30,250 nucleotides of DNA from a virus (Duplodnaviria > Heunggongvirae > Uroviricota > Caudoviricetes). This document shows, in pieces, positions 1-28,918 of the stretch. Numbering within the stretch: the first letter of the stretch is position 1; each line of letters opens with the position of its first letter. The notes below the pieces were generated by a model, which made no database searches, had not been told where the DNA came from, and was given only the letters and a program-made list of their open reading frames with translations. Where the stretch lies: IMG/VR virus record IMGVR_UViG_2740892422_000005. The stretch is one strand, 5' to 3'. The position numbers and the translations under genes are program-made.

Positions 1-12
1 GGATACCTTTAC

Positions 13-39
13 TGTGTATATAAATAAATTATATACACA
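13..39. promoter_or_regulatory. Perfect 11-bp inverted repeat (TGTGTATATAA / TTATATACACA) around a 5-nt spacer in an AT-rich non-coding stretch
   Basis: Read directly from the sequence: arms 13-23 and 29-39 are exact reverse complements. Function unknown; could be an operator or a hairpin. Confidence 0.3.
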
Positions 40-500
40 TAAATAATGTAAAGGCGTCCTTTTAGATATATCTTATCAAATGTTAATGACTTGAGTGGGA
101 AATATGATTCCAGCAACTTATCATGTGGCTACTTTATAAAAATAATGCCCATATAAAACAACAAGCGAAAAGGATTACGGATAAAAAAGGAGCGAGATGT
201 GCGAACTTGTTATTTTCCATGTTTAATCACCTTAAATAATTGATGATGACGGGATGATTGCATCTGTAATGCTTTTATTGAAATGTTATGATAAAAAAGA
301 ACTTTTGCATAACATTAAAATGTAATTTATCTAATCGTTTTTAATAATAAATGTCGTATTTCTATCCTTGTACCAGCTATTTGATATGTAGTGTTTGTTC
401 ATGCTATGTGGGGCTTTACACCATAGCCAGTTTATTTATACTTTATTCGTCAGCCTGAACAACTGGCATCTGCTGCGCTGCGCCATCGAGAGATTGAGAA

Positions 501-4384: not shown

Positions 4385-4390
4385 TATAAT
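4385..4390 (+). promoter_or_regulatory. Candidate -10 hexamer TATAAT upstream of trkG (second TATAAT at 4357-4362)
   Basis: Two perfect TATAAT hexamers in the AT-rich spacer between Rz and trkG. No clear -35. Confidence 0.25.
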
Positions 4391-4407
4391 TGAAAGAATA
4401 TTTAGAT

Positions 4408-5865
4408 ATGAATACATCTCATGTAAGAGTTGTTACTCATATGTGTGGGTTCTTGGTTTGGCTTTATAGTCTTTCAATGTTGCCACCAATGGTTGTAGCA
4501 TTGTTTTATAAAGAAAAAAGCCTGTTCGTTTTCTTTATAACTTTCGTTATATTTTTTTGCATTGGTGGCGGAGCGTGGTATACAACTAAGAAATCTGGCA
4601 TTCAATTACGTACCCGTGATGGGTTTATTATAATTGTAATGTTTTGGATTTTGTTTTCTGTTATTAGTGCATTCCCTTTATGGATTGACTCAGAACTTAA
4701 TTTAACGTTCATTGATGCTCTGTTTGAAGGGGTTTCTGGAATAACAACAACAGGAGCAACTGTAATTGATGATGTTAGTTCATTACCTCGGGCATATTTG
4801 TACTATCGGTCACAGTTAAATTTTATAGGTGGTTTAGGAGTTATTGTTCTGGCGGTTGCAGTATTGCCATTATTGGGTATTGGTGGTGCAAAGCTTTATC
4901 AGTCAGAAATGCCGGGGCCATTTAAGGATGACAAACTCACTCCCCGCCTGGCCGATACGTCACGGACACTGTGGATAACTTATTCTTTATTAGGTATTGC
5001 TTGTATTGTCTGTTATAGACTTGCAGGAATGCCTTTGTTTGATGCTATTTGTCACGGGATTTCCACAGTTTCGCTTGGTGGTTTCTCAACTCATAGCGAG
5101 AGTATCGGATATTTTAATAACTATTTGGTTGAGCTGGTGGCTGGTTCTTTTTCCCTGCTATCGGCTTTCAACTTCACTCTTTGGTATATTGTTATTAGCA
5201 GAAAAACGATAAAACCTTTAATCAGAGATATTGAACTTCGTTTCTTTCTGTTAATAGCCTTAGGGGTGATCATTGTTACCTCTTTCCAGGTCTGGCATAT
5301 AGGTATGTATGACTTGCATGGAAGTTTTATTCATTCGTTTTTTCTTGCCAGCTCCATGCTCACTGATAATGGTTTAGCTACGCAGGATTATGCAAACTGG
5401 CCCACGCACACGATAGTGTTTTTGCTGTTGTCAAGTTTCTTTGGGGGATGTATAGGTTCAACCTGTGGTGGAATTAAGTCACTTCGATTTCTTATACTTT
5501 TCAAACAAAGCAAACACGAGATAAATCAGCTTTCTCATCCCAGAGCGTTGTTGAGTGTAAATGTAGGAGGGAAGATAGTTACAGATCGTGTAATGAGGTC
5601 TGTATGGAGTTTCTTTTTTCTTTATACTCTCTTCACGGTGTTTTTTATACTGGTGTTAAATGGTATGGGATATGATTTTCTTACATCATTTGCAACAGTG
5701 GCTGCATGTATTAATAATATGGGATTAGGTTTTGGGGCTACTGCATCGTCATTCGGAGTGCTTAATGACATTGCAAAGTATTTAATGTGCATAGCTATGA
5801 TTCTTGGTCGCCTTGAAATTTATCCTGTTATTATATTGTTTTCAGGTTTTTTTTGGCGCTCCTAA
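4408..5865 (+). CDS. trkG: TrkG/TrkH-family potassium uptake membrane protein (485 aa)
   Basis: Polytopic membrane protein with repeated selectivity-filter-like Gly motifs (GVSGITTTGATV, SLGGFSTHS, GLGFGATA). Matches, from memory, the Rac-prophage TrkG starting MNTSHVRVVTH, so the ATG at 4408 is preferred over the TTG at 4390. Strongly AT-rich compared with flanking phage genes. Confidence 0.9.
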   Translation: MNTSHVRVVTHMCGFLVWLYSLSMLPPMVVALFYKEKSLFVFFITFVIFFCIGGGAWYTTKKSGIQLRTRDGFIIIVMFWILFSVISAFPLWIDSELNLTFIDALFEGVSGITTTGATVIDDVSSLPRAYLYYRSQLNFIGGLGVIVLAVAVLPLLGIGGAKLYQSEMPGPFKDDKLTPRLADTSRTLWITYSLLGIACIVCYRLAGMPLFDAICHGISTVSLGGFSTHSESIGYFNNYLVELVAGSFSLLSAFNFTLWYIVISRKTIKPLIRDIELRFFLLIALGVIIVTSFQVWHIGMYDLHGSFIHSFFLASSMLTDNGLATQDYANWPTHTIVFLLLSSFFGGCIGSTCGGIKSLRFLILFKQSKHEINQLSHPRALLSVNVGGKIVTDRVMRSVWSFFFLYTLFTVFFILVLNGMGYDFLTSFATVAACINNMGLGFGATASSFGVLNDIAKYLMCIAMILGRLEIYPVIILFSGFFWRS

Positions 5866-16695: not shown

Positions 16696-17658
16696 GTGAG
16701 TTCAGGTGCAAAGGTTATCTCGGCATTTATCCGGGAGACAGTTGCAGGCACCACGCCAGCAAGTGGTGACTGGAGTTTATTAAAACGCACAAGCTGGGGA
16801 GTAAAACCCACCCAGAATAAAGGCGAAAATAATGAGATCGGCGGCTCCCGGATGGCTCAGGGGGCGACGTCTGGCACTGTGGATGTCGGCGGTGATGTCG
16901 GTACCAAATTTCGCTGGGGTCAACATGATGATTTTCTTGCATCCTGTTTCGGCGCGGAATGGTCAGGCGATTCTCTGACAATGGGGAATGAGCGAATAAC
17001 ATTTTCTCTGGCGACCTATGCGTCCGATGTCGGAATTGCCTCTGTCGTCAGAGGAGCGCAGGTTGGCTCATGGAAAATGCAGATCCCTAACGACGGCGAT
17101 ATTACAGCGACCGTAACCTTTGCCGGGCTGGACTGGGAATCAAAGGCCGATGATACGAATTTTATCAAAGGCGAACCTGTGGATAGTGCAGGAAAGCTAC
17201 GCTATTCGTTTAAGGAGGTTTCAGCGGTAAGCCTGAATGGTGTTGCCGGAGGTAACGGTTTTTGTATCGACAGTTTTGATATTCAGTTCGATAACAAACT
17301 CCAGACACAGCGTTGTATCGGGACTGGCTCGCCTTATGCAGGAGCAAATATTCCGACTACTTTTACACCGTCCGGTACGGTGACGCTTTCGTGGTCTAAA
17401 TCCGCGTGGGAAATCTGGAGTAAAACACTGACTGGAGAAACAGTTCCGTTCAGCTTCACGCTTTCGAATGGAGAGGGGGCATACACTTTCAGTTTCCCGA
17501 AGGTTCAGGTGTCAGGTGAATGGCCTGATGGGGGGAATACCGACATTATCCAGGTTCAATTGAGCATTACCGCAGCAGATGAAGCACCTACGATAACCAG
17601 AAAAAAAAACTCCCCGGCTGCCGTGATCGCAAAAGCCAGTGCTGAGGCGATTAGTTGA
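16696..17658 (+). CDS. Major tail (tube) protein, GTG start
   Basis: GTG 16696 lies 5 nt after a perfect AGGAGG. 320-aa Gly/Thr/Ser-rich beta-type protein, followed by a strong hairpin and the tail chaperone genes. Confidence 0.7.
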   Translation: MSSGAKVISAFIRETVAGTTPASGDWSLLKRTSWGVKPTQNKGENNEIGGSRMAQGATSGTVDVGGDVGTKFRWGQHDDFLASCFGAEWSGDSLTMGNERITFSLATYASDVGIASVVRGAQVGSWKMQIPNDGDITATVTFAGLDWESKADDTNFIKGEPVDSAGKLRYSFKEVSAVSLNGVAGGNGFCIDSFDIQFDNKLQTQRCIGTGSPYAGANIPTTFTPSGTVTLSWSKSAWEIWSKTLTGETVPFSFTLSNGEGAYTFSFPKVQVSGEWPDGGNTDIIQVQLSITAADEAPTITRKKNSPAAVIAKASAEAIS

Positions 17659-17670
17659 TTTTCCGTTATT

Positions 17671-17697
17671 CCCCCTGTGGTACTGAACTACAGGGGG
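17671..17697 (+). promoter_or_regulatory. Strong 11-bp stem-loop (CCCCCTGTGGT / ACTACAGGGGG, loop ACTGA) with no U-tract
   Basis: Read directly from the sequence between the major tail stop (17658) and the chaperone start (17707). Its 3' arm overlaps the chaperone RBS (GGGGGA). Confidence 0.4.
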
Positions 17698-17706
17698 ACG
17701 CATTGA

Positions 17707-18168
17707 ATGAGGTTATGGATGTTTATTCTTAATCAGAAAATTATCATCAGTGGAGAACGCTGGTTTACGCCAATGAAGGACTTAAAACCTGTAGACGGGT
17801 TAAAACTGTTGGTGGCAAGCAGCGATAACGATCAGTATCGCTCCCGTAATGCATTAATCCGTCGCCACATTGAGAAAATGGATGCCAGTTTGCACGTCGG
17901 AACGAAGGAGTTTGATATTTCAAAGGTTTCCGAGGTGGATTCTGTTGATGATTTACTCATTGATAATGCGGCTCGTTATCTGCTGAAAGACTGGAAAGGG
18001 GTTGGTGAACTGGTTGATGGTGTTGAGGTTGTACTGGAATATACGCCAGAACGAGGGATCGCGCTGCTTAAGCAGAATCCAGAGTTGTACTGGCAGCTCC
18101 TTGCAGAAGCAGCTAGCATCGCCCAGGGAAAAGAGCAGCAGAAGCAGGATACGATAAAAAAGCCATAG
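17707..18168 (+). CDS. Tail assembly chaperone (G-like)
   Basis: ATG 17707 lies 8 nt after GGGGGA. Acidic 153-aa protein ending ...DTIKKP* with a slippery heptamer at its 3' end. Confidence 0.65.
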   Translation: MRLWMFILNQKIIISGERWFTPMKDLKPVDGLKLLVASSDNDQYRSRNALIRRHIEKMDASLHVGTKEFDISKVSEVDSVDDLLIDNAARYLLKDWKGVGELVDGVEVVLEYTPERGIALLKQNPELYWQLLAEAASIAQGKEQQKQDTIKKP

Positions 18169-18497
18169 CTGCCCAGCGGTGGTTATCTGAGTTCGGGGGA
18201 GAAAAGGGTGAAAAGGCAAGATGGAAGCGAGAAAAACTCAGGTTGCCGCCGCTCCTGGAGCCAGAAATAGACCCCGTTGTCCGTGAGTTATTGTATGCGT
18301 ATTCAGTAATGTCTCGTTCTAGGCGTTATGCAGGCATGTCCGGGGTTCCGCTGCCTTTGTCAATATCTGACATACACGACTATTTAAAAGCACACCCAAT
18401 ATTGATAGATAGTGATGAATTTGAAGCAGTGATCTTTGCGCTGGATGACCAGTATGTTTCTCAATCCAAAACTTTTGATGGGATATTGATTAATTAA
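17707..18497 (+). CDS. Tail assembly chaperone G-T fusion made by -1 programmed frameshift at A_AAA_AAG (18156-18162)
   Basis: The -1 frame is open from the slippery site, translated by hand as KAIAAQRWLSEFGGEKGEKARWKRE..., and joins the 18243-18497 ORF. This matches the lambda G/GT arrangement. Confidence 0.55.
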
Positions 18498-18550
18498 TTT
18501 TATGCTTTGGCAATTAATTGTATGTACATAGTTTTATGTGAAATTGATAG

Positions 18551-18579
18551 TTGACTATAAAATGTGGTCGATATTTTAA
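18551..18579 (+). promoter_or_regulatory. Candidate sigma70 promoter for the Ail/Lom-like moron (-35 TTGACT at 18551-18556, AT-rich -10 region around 18572-18579)
   Basis: Near-consensus -35 TTGACT. The -10 is imperfect (TATTTT/TTTAAT depending on spacer). Confidence 0.3.
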
Positions 18580-18585
18580 TGCTGC

Positions 18586-18606
18586 CAGCCAGATTAATTC
18601 TGGCTG
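18586..18606. promoter_or_regulatory. 8-bp inverted repeat CAGCCAGA-TTAAT-TCTGGCTG in the 5' leader of the Ail/Lom-like gene
   Basis: Read directly from the sequence, between the candidate promoter and the RBS. Candidate operator or RNA hairpin. Confidence 0.3.
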
Positions 18607-18640
18607 TTATAACAATGATTTGTGAAATAGCGGTGATTTT

Positions 18641-19177
18641 ATGAAAAAAGCAGTGTTGACTACCATTATCGCTTCAGCCTTGTTTGCAACTGGCATTGCA
18701 AATGCTGAATTGATGCAGAATACTATTTCTCTAGGTTATGCACAAAGTCATGTTAAAGTCGCTGGAGAAAGCCTTGATGAGAATCCTTCCGGGGTAAATA
18801 TTAAGTATCGATATGAGCTGGATGATAAATGGGGCGTTGCATCTTCATTTACGTACACACATCAAGAATACGATTATCATTTTGCAGGCTCTAAAATTGG
18901 AAATGAAAAACTGGATTACTATTCACTAGCTGCCGGTCCAGCCTATCGTTTCAATGATTACTTCAGTGCATATGGCTTAATAGGTTTAGCGCATGGACGT
19001 GCTGAAGCGACGATTTTGGGATACTCTGACTCTTTAAGCAAGACTTCGGTTGTATATGGTGCTGGTATTCAGTTTAATCCTGTACCAAATTGGGTAGTTG
19101 ACGCATCCTATGAGTACACCAAATTGGGCGATGTGAAAGTTGGTACCTGGATGACCGGTATTGGTTATCGTTTCTGA
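18641..19177 (+). CDS. Ail/Lom/OmpX/PagC-family outer-membrane beta-barrel protein (178 aa) with signal peptide
   Basis: Signal peptide MKKAVLTTIIASALFATGIANA, family motifs (GYAQS, NIKYRYE, GAGIQFNP) and C-terminal GIGYRF ending in Phe. Distinct from the canonical lom at 28319. Confidence 0.8.
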   Translation: MKKAVLTTIIASALFATGIANAELMQNTISLGYAQSHVKVAGESLDENPSGVNIKYRYELDDKWGVASSFTYTHQEYDYHFAGSKIGNEKLDYYSLAAGPAYRFNDYFSAYGLIGLAHGRAEATILGYSDSLSKTSVVYGAGIQFNPVPNWVVDASYEYTKLGDVKVGTWMTGIGYRF

Positions 19178-19200
19178 TAATTCCTTTCTTCTGTTGTCTG

Positions 19201-19228
19201 GCCCCGCTTTCTAAGCGGGGCTTTTTTT
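19201..19228 (+). terminator. Intrinsic terminator (GCCCCGCTT-loop-AAGCGGGGC + T7)
   Basis: 9-bp GC-rich stem followed by TTTTTTT, 24 nt after the Ail/Lom-like stop and just upstream of the tape measure start. Confidence 0.6.
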
Positions 19229-19243
19229 GTCCGGAGCAACTAA

Positions 19244-22200
19244 ATGACAGAGCAAACTTCACGTCTTGCAATAATTATTGATAGCACTGGAGCGAAAAAT
19301 AATGCTGATAATTTGACCTCCTCCCTGGTCAAAATGACGCAGGCTGGGGCAACTGCTGCAAATAGCGCAGGGAAAGTGACTAGGGCAACAGAAGATGAGA
19401 AGAACGCGCTCGCAAAATTAAAAGCAGCTATTGATCCTGTTGGTGCCGCAATTGATACTGTCGGTCGGCGCTATTCTGAATTAAAGAAATACTTCGACAA
19501 AGGGCTTATTCATAAAGAAGAATATGAATTTCTTTCCCGTAAACTTAATGAAACTACAGCGGAATTGAGCGGGGTTGCGCAAGCGCAGAGAGAAGCCGAG
19601 AAGGCCGGAAAACTTGCTGCCGCCCAGCAGGAAGCGCAGGCTCAGGCCTTTCAAAGAATGCTGGACAAGATCGACCCTCTGGCTGCGGCGCTAAGACATC
19701 TTGAACAACAGCAGGATGAACTTAATGCTGCGTTTGCATCCGGGAAAATAAATGGTTCTCAGTTTGAGAATTATAGCCGAAAAATACAGGAAACACGGCG
19801 AGAGCTTACCGGAGAGGCTCAGGCAGAGCGAGAAGCAGCAAAAGCGCATGATGAACAGGTTGCTGCTTTGCAACGTCTGATTGCTCAACTTGATCCTGTC
19901 GGAACTGCTTTTAATCGTCTGGTAGAACAACAGAAACAGCTCAATGAAGCAAAAGCTAAGGGGATGCTTTCTCCTGAAATGTATGAGGAGCTTTCTGGAA
20001 AACTTCGTGCTATGCGGAGTGAGCTTGAGGTTACTCAATCGCAATTAAGCAAAACCGGAATGTCGGCAAAACAAACGGCTTTTGCTATGCGCATGTTGCC
20101 TGCACAAATGACGGATATTGTTGTTGGGTTGTCCACTGGTCAGTCGCCATTTATGGTGTTAATGCAGCAGGGCGGCCAGCTAAAAGATATGTTCGGTGGG
20201 ATTGGCCCGGCGATCAAAGGTGTAGGTTCTTATGTGCTGGGATTAATTAATCCTTTTACCCTGGCCGCAGCAGCCGTTGGCGTCTTAGGGCTGGCTTACT
20301 ATAAAGGCTCTCAGGAGCAGGACGAATTTAATAAATCTCTTATTCTTACCGGAAATCAGTTGGGGACAACCAGCGGGCAATTGGCCGATATAGCTCAACG
20401 TGCCGGGAATGCGGCTGATTCGACAACTGGCGCTGCGGCGGTAGTATTAAAACAGCTTGTGCGTTCGGGAAAGGTAGCGAGCAGTTCGCTGGAGCAAGTG
20501 ACGACAGCGATAGTAAAAACGAGCGAAGTAACAGGAATATCAACCGAACAACTGGTTAATGACTTCAATGAAATTGCAAAGGATCCTGTCAGTGCTATAT
20601 CAAAACTTAATGATCAGTACCATTTTCTGACACTTGCGACTTATAACCAGATTAAGGCGCTACAGGATGAAGGGAACCAGCAGGAGGCTGCTCGTATTGC
20701 GACGGAAGCATATTCATCCTCAATGATTCAACGTTCCAGCCAGATTAAAGAAAATCTTGGTTATCTTGAGACTGCATGGAAAGCTGTCGCAGACTCCGCA
20801 AAATGGGCATGGGATTCCATGCTGGATATTGGCCGTGAGGCCTCCCTTGATCAAAAAATCTCAGATGTTCTCCGTCAAATTGATGAAATAGAAAAAAATA
20901 CCCGACCCGGAGTTTTCGGGTTAGGTGGCATTGGAGATGGCGGAGCTCAAAATAAAAAGCTGGCACGATTAAAGCAGCAATTGGGCGTACTTCAAGCAGA
21001 AAAAATTGCTCAGGACGTACTAAATTCATCAATAAACGATTACAACAAGCGACAACAGGAAGGAATTGAACTCAGACAGAGAGCAGATGCTTTTTCAAAA
21101 CAATATCAAACCCGGGAGCAGCAGAGAGCTAGTGAACTTGCAAAACTGGAAAAGCTAAAGAATCAGTATTCAAAGGAAGAATATAATAATCTTATCGCTC
21201 AAATAAATGAGCGTTATAAAGAACCAAAGCAACCAAAGGCGAAAGGTTATTCGGATGATGCTGCCCAACGAATGATTGATCATCTGAATCAACAGAATGC
21301 GTTACTAAGTTCACAAGCTGAATTGACCGTTAAATTAAGTTCCTCTGAACAGGAACTGGTTAAGTGGCGTCAGCAGATTGCCGACCTGGAGTCACGACCG
21401 TCATCGAAATTAACCCAGGATCAGAAATCGCTTCTCTTACACCGGGAAGAAATAACTGCGTTGATGGAGAAAAATGTTGCGATTGAAAAAAATAACAGGC
21501 TAATCAAGGAATCCGCCGAAATAGCTGCATGGCGTGATTCATTGCAGGCTTCGATTGATAATCGTCAACAGGGGTATGACATTCAGATTGCTGGTTATGG
21601 GTTTGGCGATAAAAATCAGCAACGCCAGCAGGAATTACTGCGGATTGAACGTGAATATAACAATCAGCGTCTGCAACTTGAACGTGACTATGCAGATAAA
21701 TCCCGTGGAATGTCAAATCATGTTTTTCAGGAGAAAATGCAGGCTCTGAATGATGCTCTGGAACGAGAAAAAGAAATTGTCAGCCAGAAAAACGAGCAGC
21801 TCGATATTCAGGCAGGAGACTGGATTAGTGGTGCCTCCCAGGGATTCAATAACTGGCTGGATGACACTAAGGATATCGGTGCGCAGATAAAATCAACCAC
21901 GACTCAGATGTTTGATGGGATGACCGATGCGCTAGGTGATTTTGTCACGACAGGCAAGGCAAATTTTCGTTCTTTCGCTACTTCCGTGATTTCGGATCTT
22001 AGTCGAATTGCATTAAAGGCTTCAATTACTGGGATTTTCGACAGCATTGATAACAGTTCTTCTGGTGGGATTTTAGGAACTATCGGGAGTGCTATTAGTA
22101 AATTTATTCCGAATGCAAAGGGCGGTGTGTATGAGTCTCCGTCATTGAGTACATATTCGAACGGTATTTATGACTCCCCACAATTTTTTGCTTTTGCAAA

Positions 22201-22477
22201 AGGAGCTGGTGTTTTTGGCGAGGCTGGACCGGAAGCTATTATGCCATTAACGCGAACTTCCGATGGTTCTCTTGGTGTCAGAGCTATTAATAGTAAAAGT
22301 GGTAATGGAGGCAGAGATATTACCTATGCACCTGTATACCAAATCACTATTCAAAATGACGGCCAGAATGGAGAGATTGGTCCTCAGGCAATAAAAGCAC
22401 TTATGGGGATGGTTGATCAGCGGGTGCAGGGCACTCTGTTAAATATGCGCCGTGATGGAGGAATGTTAAGTGGCTAA
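19244..22477 (+). CDS. H: Tail tape measure protein (1077 aa)
   Basis: Very long alpha-helical, coiled-coil-rich protein between the chaperone genes and M/L. Hydrophobic Gly-rich central segment. Confidence 0.85.
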
Positions 22478-24850: not shown

Positions 24851-28251
<3,401 letters not shown>

Positions 28252-28318: not shown

Positions 28319-28918
28319 ATGCGTAAAGTTTGTGCAGCCATTTTGTCCGCAGCCATCTGTCTGGCCGTATCCGGTGCGCCTGCATGGGCATCTGAACATC
28401 AGTCCACGCTGAGCGCGGGGTATCTTCATGCCTCGACGAACGTTCCCGGCAGCGATGATCTGAACGGGATTAACGTGAAATACCGTTATGAGTTTACGGA
28501 TACACTGGGGCTGGTGACGTCATTCAGCTATGCAGGAGACAAGAATCGCCAGCTGACCTGTTACAGCGATACCCGCTGGCATGAAGATTCCGTGCGTAAC
28601 CGCTGGTTCAGCGTGATGGCGGGGCCGTCTGTGCGCGTGAATGAATGGTTCAGCGCGTATGCGATGGCGGGTATGGCTTACAGCCGTGTTTCGACTTTCT
28701 CCGGAGATTATATCCGCGTAACTGACAACAAGGGGAAAACGCACGATGTGCTGACCGGAAGTGATGACGGTCGCCACAGCAACACGTCTCTGGCGTGGGG
28801 AGCTGGCGTGCAGTTTAACCCGACCGAATCCGTGGCCGTTGACGTCGCTTATGAAGGCTCCGGCAGCGGTGACTGGCGTACCAACAGTTTCATCGTGGGT
28901 GTAGGTTATAAATTCTGA
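28319..28918 (+). CDS. lom: Lom outer-membrane protein (Ail/Lom family), canonical lambda position
   Basis: MRKVCAAILSAAICLAVSGAPAWASEHQSTLSAGYLHAS... is close to lambda Lom from memory. Signal peptide, C-terminal GVGYKF. Confidence 0.9.
   Translation: MRKVCAAILSAAICLAVSGAPAWASEHQSTLSAGYLHASTNVPGSDDLNGINVKYRYEFTDTLGLVTSFSYAGDKNRQLTCYSDTRWHEDSVRNRWFSVMAGPSVRVNEWFSAYAMAGMAYSRVSTFSGDYIRVTDNKGKTHDVLTGSDDGRHSNTSLAWGAGVQFNPTESVAVDVAYEGSGSGDWRTNSFIVGVGYKF

Follow-up and report, generated by a model that had tools for sequence, protein, structure and literature searches.

The 30,250-nucleotide stretch of DNA analysed here (IMG/VR record IMGVR_UViG_2740892422_000005, hereafter the window) is, judging from its sequence, a Rac-type lambdoid prophage of E. 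coli. Between its tail assembly chaperone genes (G and T) and its tape measure gene lies a 759-bp foreign cassette, in which a gene for a protein resembling the outer-membrane β-barrel Ail is preceded by an AT-rich leader and followed by an intrinsic terminator. We propose, with a probability of roughly 0.6, that this cassette is a moron, namely a horizontally acquired, self-contained accessory unit that is transcribed in the lysogen and alters its surface. The cassette is a real but ordinary example of a moron and represents no new kind of element. An earlier model-generated reading of the same DNA, made from the letters alone (the original prediction), had already suggested an Ail/Lom-family moron at this location; its reading holds in most points, and each element that it listed lies where it had been placed. 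The parts of the cassette are listed here.

18459-19217, + strand: whole foreign cassette, 759 bp (BLAST breakpoints against SPF_0923, vB_EcoS-683R6 and K-12 Rac)
18551-18580, + strand: promoter-like element, with a -35 TTGACT at 18551-18556 and candidate -10 elements TATTTT at 18572-18577 and TTTAAT at 18575-18580
18586-18606, + strand: leader hairpin or palindrome with 8-bp arms and a 5-nt loop, ~35-55 nt 5' of the ATG (repeat search and folding)
18641-19177, + strand: Ail-like outer-membrane β-barrel gene, 178 amino acids (Pfam, PHROG, AlphaFold2, Foldseek)
19200-19229, + strand: intrinsic terminator with a 10-bp stem (19200-19222; seven G-C pairs), a 3-nt loop and a run of seven T residues (detected and folded)

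The cassette gene encodes an Ail-like protein

The 178-amino-acid product matches the Pfam families Ail_Lom (PF06316; E=3.8e-27, 95.8 bits versus a cut-off of 23) and OMP_b-brl (PF13505; E=1.2e-27, 97.7 bits versus a cut-off of 28.7), as well as PHROG 108 'Lom outer membrane protein' (phrog_108; E=1.7e-46). The gene is already annotated by the NCBI pipeline as 'Ail/Lom family outer membrane beta-barrel protein'. Together with the eight-stranded structural model described below, these matches confirm that the window carries a second gene of this family besides the canonical lom at 28319-28918.

Sequence comparisons place the protein specifically in the Ail clade, as Ail-like rather than Lom-like. 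Among proteins of solved structure, Yersinia pestis Ail (3QRA) scores 186 bits (E=5e-54), compared with 107 bits for OmpX and 64 bits for lambda Lom. Pairwise identity is 56% with mature Y. pestis Ail, 40% with Y. pestis OmpX and 30% with the window's own Lom. Named homologues at 52-61% identity are Ail proteins of Xenorhabdus, Photorhabdus, Proteus, Arsenophonus and Yersinia, and the nearest relative at the species level is from Citrobacter braakii (68.5% identity). The suggestion of a divergent Ail/Lom/OmpX-like gene is correct as to family, and within the family Ail, at 56% identity against 30% for Lom, is the better point of reference. The best NCBIfam model is the OmpX equivalog NF006917 (E=5.8e-40), whose score of 136.9 bits falls under the cut-off of 176 bits and so rules out assignment as an OmpX orthologue. 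The Rck equivalog NF011777 (92.7 bits) is likewise under its cut-off of 258 bits.

An AlphaFold2 model built with 27 homologues (mean predicted local distance difference test score, pLDDT, of 86.9) consists of an N-terminal signal helix followed by eight strands. The top Foldseek match to this model is Y. pestis Ail 3QRC, with a template modelling (TM) score of 0.93-0.94 and a root-mean-square deviation of 1.3-1.5 Å, and OmpX 1QJ9 is matched with a TM score of 0.93. By inspection, residues 1-22 form a predicted signal peptide, with an initial MKK, a hydrophobic core and cleavage between ANA and ELMQ; Ail itself is cleaved between Ala and Glu (PMC3417512). The C-terminus, GIGYRF, has by inspection the aromatic residues of a β-signal. 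As far as can be read from these features, a signal peptide and a C-terminal GYRF are the requirements of a barrel that depends on Sec and on the β-barrel assembly machinery (BAM). The original prediction had proposed alignment to Ail, Rck, OmpX and Lom together with predictions of barrel topology and signal peptide; Ail is closest in these alignments, and the model and the inspection bear out both the barrel and the signal peptide.

The cassette is a rare insertion at an otherwise empty junction

Homology between the window and its relatives ends at position 18458 and resumes at 19218, such that 759 bp are present in the window in place of 154 bp. The last 13 codons of the T frame (18459-18497) fall within the replaced segment, and the AT-rich gap between the end of the T frame and the ail-like open reading frame (ORF) is 143 nt. 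The original prediction had placed the unit at 18498-19230. The gene and its associated elements are indeed located there, but the foreign segment, at 18459-19217, extends slightly further to the left. Composition also sets this segment apart: GC content is 38.3% for the cassette, 29.1% for the leader (18459-18640) and 40.8% for the ORF, compared with 44.8-46.1% for the flanking genes and 48.7% for the window.

Both flanks have matches at ~92% identity in ten phage genomes (Salmonella phage SPF_0923 and those of nine vB_EcoS phages), which lack about 600 bp at this position. SPF_0923, which is without the ail-like gene, was deposited as a complete genome, and the gene is also missing from K-12 Rac. 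Junction counts were then taken over 5,426 complete E. coli genomes, of which 1,069 have any match to the junction region. The junction is empty in 1,043 of these, and the Ail cassette is present in 20 (identical to that of the window in seven, 91-94% identical in 12, and a third allele in one, strain S1-INA-02-A). Thus, the proposal that the gene is a moron rather than a conserved feature of the module holds, since relatives do not routinely carry it here. The seven identical carriers are five domestic-pig isolates (four of them named as enterotoxigenic E. coli, ETEC), one feral-pig isolate and one human isolate. Carriers overall include porcine enterotoxigenic strains, the feral-pig isolate, and some human, bovine and yak isolates, and the cassette is also found in four IMG/VR prophage contigs. 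A nucleotide search of phage and plasmid collections with the cassette gave no match, even at distant-blastn sensitivity, and therefore no deposited phage or plasmid is its donor.

The empty junction is not bare. In SPF_0923 (L001, 2260-2413), and in the same form in K-12 Rac (L006, between ydaY and ynaA), it is a 154-bp spacer with its own intrinsic terminator and a 29-codon ORF (L001, 2309-2398) that ends just before the stem. This spacer and its ORF could be the relic of an older moron, or a small gene. A 15-nt direct repeat with 14 of 15 positions matching, CTGGATGACCAGTAT and CTGGATGACCGGTAT, is present in the window at 18441-18455 and 19147-19161. The end of the first copy coincides exactly with the left homology break and the second lies within the 3' end of the ail-like ORF; the rough chance expectation is ~0.015, and the repeat is missing from the junction of allele C, the third allele. 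As a mark of the recombination mechanism this repeat was rejected, because the right junction (19218) is off the second copy and allele C is without the repeat.

The leader and terminator were inherited together with the gene

The region 3' of the ail-like gene aligns with the region 3' of the C. braakii homologue, following the pattern CTCTGTTG..TGGCCC(C/T)GC...GC(G/A)GGGCTTT, and the terminator is homologous to its C. braakii counterpart, with a compensatory change of a stem C-G pair to T-A. A related hairpin lies behind the Salmonella homologue. Upstream of the gene, a hairpin is located ~35-55 nt 5' of the ATG in all copies. Its stems differ, being CAGCCAGA/TCTGGCTG in the window, CACCA/TGGTG in Citrobacter and TGCGCC/GG(C/T)GCA in the Salmonella-type copies. 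Because the leader hairpin and the terminator are common to non-phage homologues, both must have arrived with the gene. The block ATTGATAGTTGACT is identical across the three prophage alleles, the leaders of which are otherwise 73-86% identical, and the Citrobacter and Salmonella copies read TTGGCT at the position aligned to the -35 element.

Allele C encodes 185 amino acids and occupies the same slot in E. coli S1-INA-02-A (L004, 2581-3138) and in an IMG/VR contig (L099). Its phage backbone is 95-100% identical to that of the window, whereas its central coding part shares 40-55% DNA identity and 56% protein identity; allele C nevertheless keeps the signal peptide, promoter core and terminator. 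For alleles A versus B, the rate of synonymous substitution (dS) is 0.06 for ail versus 0.12-0.23 for the adjacent tube and tape measure genes (0.23 for the tape measure gene), and most amino-acid differences are located in the outward-facing half of the barrel. The presence of a divergent allele C in a near-identical backbone and the low dS between A and B indicate that the cassette has spread, and that its alleles have been replaced, by recombination.

The expectation that the closest homologues in other genera occupy the same slot was rejected, since their genomic settings differ. The C. braakii homologue sits at the edge of a prophage, the Salmonella copies reside in an island with PapB/AraC/EAL-type neighbour genes, and a Xenorhabdus-type copy is chromosomal and adjoins thrS. 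Separately, Ail-clade homologues recur in other lineages of siphophages, whose tail modules have them between the tape measure/M genes and J. These include IMG/VR loci L092-L098 and L103-L105 (53-58% identity) and a gene of Providencia phage PSTRCR_117lys (MW358929.1; 37% identity). This gene family seems to favour tail modules as a location, with several slots in use.

Elements in the leader and downstream of the gene

The terminator folds at -18.3 kcal/mol (z = -4.6), with no shuffled sequence folding as well, and the last of its seven T residues lies 15 nt before the tape measure ATG. This agrees with the claim of a strong terminator at exactly that distance. In the empty junction of relatives, a terminator with a 10-bp stem (-12.8 kcal/mol) is also found just before the tape measure gene. 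Read-through is therefore a standing need of the lineage that was not created by this insertion. Read-through at this junction presumably occurs by means of the Q-like antiterminator. The notion that late transcription has to pass the terminator with the help of Q would thus apply to relatives with the empty junction as well as to the cassette. All Rfam matches in the region 17600-19400 are sub-threshold and driven by the terminator hairpin (the best being Trp_leader, with 26.5 bits versus a gathering cut-off of 41), and were judged to be due to chance.

The inverted repeat in the leader, CAGCCAGA at 18586-18593 and TCTGGCTG at 18599-18606, folds at -14 kcal/mol (z = -3.8), and both this 8-bp repeat and the AT-rich character of the leader (29% GC) had been recognized correctly from the letters alone. 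If transcription starts a few bases past the candidate -10, the hairpin would be at or near the 5' end of the mRNA. Hairpins at mRNA 5' ends stabilize transcripts, as for ompA. Alternatively, the palindrome may act as an operator. Inspection of the leader by eye revealed no convincing half-sites of CRP- or PhoP-like operators.

The promoter-like element includes TTGACT, which matches five of the six positions of the -35 consensus. Of the two -10 candidates, TATTTT is at a 15-nt spacing, whereas TTTAAT is at an 18-nt spacing and is without the conserved A at position 2. The preservation of the -35 block across diverged alleles argues for function, short of proof. On the minus strand of the leader, a promoter-like site at 18597-18626 (TTCACA, an 18-nt spacer and CAGAAT; 9 of 12 matches) is probably a product of chance in AT-rich DNA.

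The prophage and its tail gene block

Over 29.7 kb, the window shares 99.3% identity with the chromosome of E. coli strain RM10740, where the prophage copy adjoins ompN. All large genes, from the Q-like antiterminator through the tail fibre, are on the + strand. Genes and signals relevant to the cassette are as follows.

1387-1929, + strand: Q-like late antiterminator gene, start coordinate approximate (phrog_753 'anti-termination protein Q-like', E=9.1e-76)
16696-17658, + strand: tail tube gene (PF18906)
17707-18168, + strand: G-like tail assembly chaperone gene, YdaY homologue, outside the cassette (phrog_313 'Tail assembly chaperone', E=2.9e-46)
18156-18162, + strand: classical -1 slippery heptamer A_AAA_AAG, which would give a G-T fusion (sequence and reading frames)
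18156-18497, + strand: T-frame (-1) extension of the chaperone, open to 18497 (phrog_1189, E=1.4e-30; weak match to PF23812 Phage_TAC_18, E=0.0015)
19244-22477, + strand: tape measure protein gene, 3' neighbour of the cassette (PF06791 TMP_2, E=2.3e-81; Tape_meas_lam_C, E=1.9e-25)
28319-28918, + strand: canonical lom, directly 3' of J (PF06316, full length, E=1.6e-121)

The chaperone, heptamer, T-frame and TMP_2 assignments establish that the cassette lies between the G-T and tape measure genes, as had been proposed. The counterpart of the chaperone gene is annotated as YdaY in related phages and in K-12 Rac. The Q-like gene is upstream of the cassette in the same orientation; its phrog_753 match spans residues 41-218 of the ORF at 1267-1929, and the Prokaryotic Genome Annotation Pipeline (PGAP) annotates an equivalent 543-nt gene in RM10740.

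Several other features of the window were observed. The tail tip gene J (24854-28251) is split into 24854-27703 and 27751-28251 by two extra bases relative to the intact 3,396-nt gene of RM10740, causing a frameshift near codon 950. To judge from this sequence, the window copy of the prophage may be defective, or the split may be a sequence error. A trkG gene (TrkH family, E=1e-144) is present at 4390-5865, in the late operon between the lysis and terminase genes, and is the well-known Rac accessory gene of that name. Because trkG adds to the ail-like gene and lom, the prophage carries at least three co-oriented cargo genes. Two tRNA genes at 2256-2409, tRNA-Thr(TGT) and tRNA-Gly(TCC), lie in the interval that separates the Q-like gene from the lysis genes. 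The window (1-416) is without an IS1 element that in RM10740 (L003, 924-2108) is inserted to the left of the DUF1367 gene, and the two sequences diverge after ~30158, in the tail-fibre region. These two differences indicate that the strain from which the window derives is related to, but distinct from, RM10740.

A proposed role for the cassette in the lysogen

We propose that recombination brought the cassette, made up of its AT-rich leader (promoter-like element and 5' hairpin), the ail-like gene and an intrinsic terminator, into the G-T/tape-measure junction of a Rac-type prophage, where it would have displaced the 154-bp spacer and the last T-frame codons. The Ail-like product would be exported by Sec and inserted by BAM into the outer membrane of the host as a small eight-stranded barrel, which would change the cell surface. 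For a lysogen in an animal host, the likeliest gain would be complement resistance, adhesion or outer-membrane robustness, phenotypes that we infer because the protein belongs to the Ail clade. In the lysogen, transcription would proceed from a probably weak or regulated promoter within the cassette and would end at the cassette's terminator, leaving the tape measure gene silent. Once the prophage is induced, the Q-like protein would modify RNA polymerase and allow it to pass this terminator, and the ail-like gene would also be expressed late. Expression of the gene during lysogeny is, like the promoter from which it would arise, something we infer from the DNA. Lambda lom and bor are known to be expressed in lysogens (PMC7067206).

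A number of observations count against this proposal. A consensus scan of the + strand of the leader passes no promoter and finds no canonical -10, and a relaxed promoter pattern is not rare by chance, since 25 of 100 shuffled versions of the window contain it one or more times. The claim that the cassette has its own promoter is thus only partly supported by its sequence, in that a good -35, conserved in diverged alleles, is set against a poor -10 and a negative scan. Furthermore, a leader of 29% GC is a typical target of H-NS silencing in E. coli, and expression may be conditional or low. The terminator alone is no proof of an independent transcription unit, since the empty junction has a terminator too.

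Other observations bear on the phenotype. When aligned with 3QRA, the protein has lost several Lys and Arg residues in its surface loops EL1-EL3 (DKNPRG to DENPSG, TRRG to THQE, and GKAKF to GRAEA), and the net charge of the mature protein is -4 versus +2 in Y. pestis Ail. Basic heparin-binding patches, HBS-I/II, have been described for Ail (PMC3417512). Given the lost basic residues and the altered charge, these patches are not evidently conserved, as judged from the alignment only. Closely related Ail paralogues of Photorhabdus differ as to whether they confer any serum resistance (PMC4198210). In addition, long lipopolysaccharide (LPS) can mask small barrels, and how Ail functions in E. coli varies with the length of the LPS core (PMC3417512). 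With diverged surface loops and paralogues that differ in activity, belonging to the family is no sufficient basis for assigning serum resistance or adhesion to the protein, a point on which the original prediction needs correction.

Alternative explanations

The Ail-like barrel might instead serve the phage. It could block the adsorption or entry of other phages (superinfection exclusion), or prevent the adsorption of progeny to lysing sibling cells. In its fuller form, this explanation holds that a surface modifier mass-produced by Q read-through, alone or with Lom, blocks related phages on lysogens and lysing siblings. Lambda Lom, when expressed, strongly defends against lambda-vir, and other eight-stranded barrels block adsorption; however, OmpX, which is closer than Lom to the Ail-like protein, gave no defence (bioRxiv 10.1101/2025.02.28.640651). 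HK97 gp15, the archetype from the same slot, is a superinfection exclusion protein (PMC3594210), yet the nearest homologues of the Ail-like protein are encoded by chromosomal ail genes of animal- and insect-associated bacteria and by a Salmonella island, not by phage-defence loci. High late expression would follow from co-orientation with the late operon 3' of the Q-like antiterminator if read-through occurs as we suppose. The concentration of A/B differences in the outward half of the barrel and the replaced central part of allele C form a pattern expected under diversifying pressure. On the other hand, PADLOC returns no match for the Ail-like protein or for Lom, and the prophage already has lom. 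We therefore regard a role in the service of the phage as a tentative and rather improbable alternative. If it were true, the allelic replacement at this slot would be the trace of an arms race with the receptor-binding proteins of phages, and small Ail/OmpX-type barrels of phage tail modules would generally be adsorption-blocking genes.

It is unlikely that the cassette is a silent or decaying passenger, without current function and kept only in a grounded Rac-type element. The weak -10, the rarity of the cassette (20 of the 1,069 genomes with this tail module) and the frameshifted J, which suggests that this prophage copy may be defective, are all compatible with such a passenger. The ratio of nonsynonymous to synonymous substitution (dN/dS) for the ail-like gene is 0.41, above the ~0.1 of neighbouring tail genes, but it is nevertheless less than 1. 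Moreover, the ORF is intact in every carrier examined (all 20 genomes and the four IMG/VR contigs) and in all three alleles, with signal peptide, β-signal and invariant barrel residues preserved, and the promoter core and terminator have been kept between alleles sharing just 56% protein identity.

That the gene is a conserved structural or assembly component of the tail module, as its location in the tail block and the presence of Ail homologues inside Proteus/Providencia-type phage tail modules might suggest, is effectively refuted by its absence from 1,043 of the 1,069 E. coli genomes with the same junction and from all ten close phage genomes, in addition to which its product is an exported barrel of the host outer membrane and its homologues take different slots in other lineages.

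Implications of an accessory Ail-like gene in E. coli

If the moron is expressed as we propose, some E. coli gain a surface protein that shares its clade with Ail, a virulence factor of the plague bacillus, and this could affect the complement resistance, adhesion, envelope robustness or phage susceptibility of carriers. The prophage on which the gene travels is mobile, of Rac type, and already has a lom gene. As a natural example of a moron, the ail-like gene is a clean one, whose slot is either empty or filled, and is filled in three allelic forms by a cassette that brings its own leader and terminator from a non-phage source. It offers a tidy system in which to test how morons are expressed and how Ail/Lom proteins function in E. 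coli. Our literature searches found no papers on Ail/Lom genes or outer-membrane morons at the chaperone/tape measure junction of prophages.

Comparison with known systems

The window protein resembles Y. pestis Ail (attachment invasion locus protein; PDB 3QRA, 3QRC and 2N2L) in size, in its Ala/Glu cleavage context, in its C-terminal GYRF and in fold. However, Ail is chromosomal in Yersinia, whereas the window copy is borne by a prophage in E. coli and is known from sequence and a model. Its EL1-EL3 have diverged, and its ligand specificity may differ. E. coli OmpX is likewise an eight-stranded barrel of the same superfamily (40-42% identity), but the window gene, unlike ompX, is accessory and phage-borne.

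Lambda Lom and the canonical lom of the window share with the cassette gene the PF06316 family, a prophage-encoded outer-membrane barrel product, and co-orientation in the late/tail region, and Lom is known to be expressed from the prophage. The window's Lom differs in length (199 versus 178 amino acids), in slot (after J versus the G-T/tape-measure junction) and in the GC content of its gene (55% versus 41%). Proteus/Providencia-type siphophages, such as PSTRCR_117lys with its 'attachment invasion locus protein', also have Ail-clade genes within tail clusters. In those phages, which belong to other lineages and have other hosts, the slot is 3' of the tape measure and M genes and before J.

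Morons have been defined by deviant GC content together with their own promoter and terminator (PMC3594210). In the sense of Juhala and Hendrix, the cassette consists of extra DNA relative to close relatives, has a deviant GC content and carries its own terminator. Its slot, described as atypical in the original prediction, is indeed atypical for lom, but for morons the G-T/tape-measure junction is the archetype: the first gene to be called a 'moron', HK97 gene 15, gave rise to the word at this position. That gene is located in the same place between the tail assembly chaperone and tape measure genes, and it too is inserted, deviant in GC content, equipped with its own terminator and promoter (the latter a candidate in the window), and missing from close relatives (PMC3594210). 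HK97 gp15 is a small inner-membrane, YebO-like superinfection exclusion protein that is unrelated to the Ail-like protein in sequence and cellular location, and its gene is expressed from the prophage (PMC3594210).

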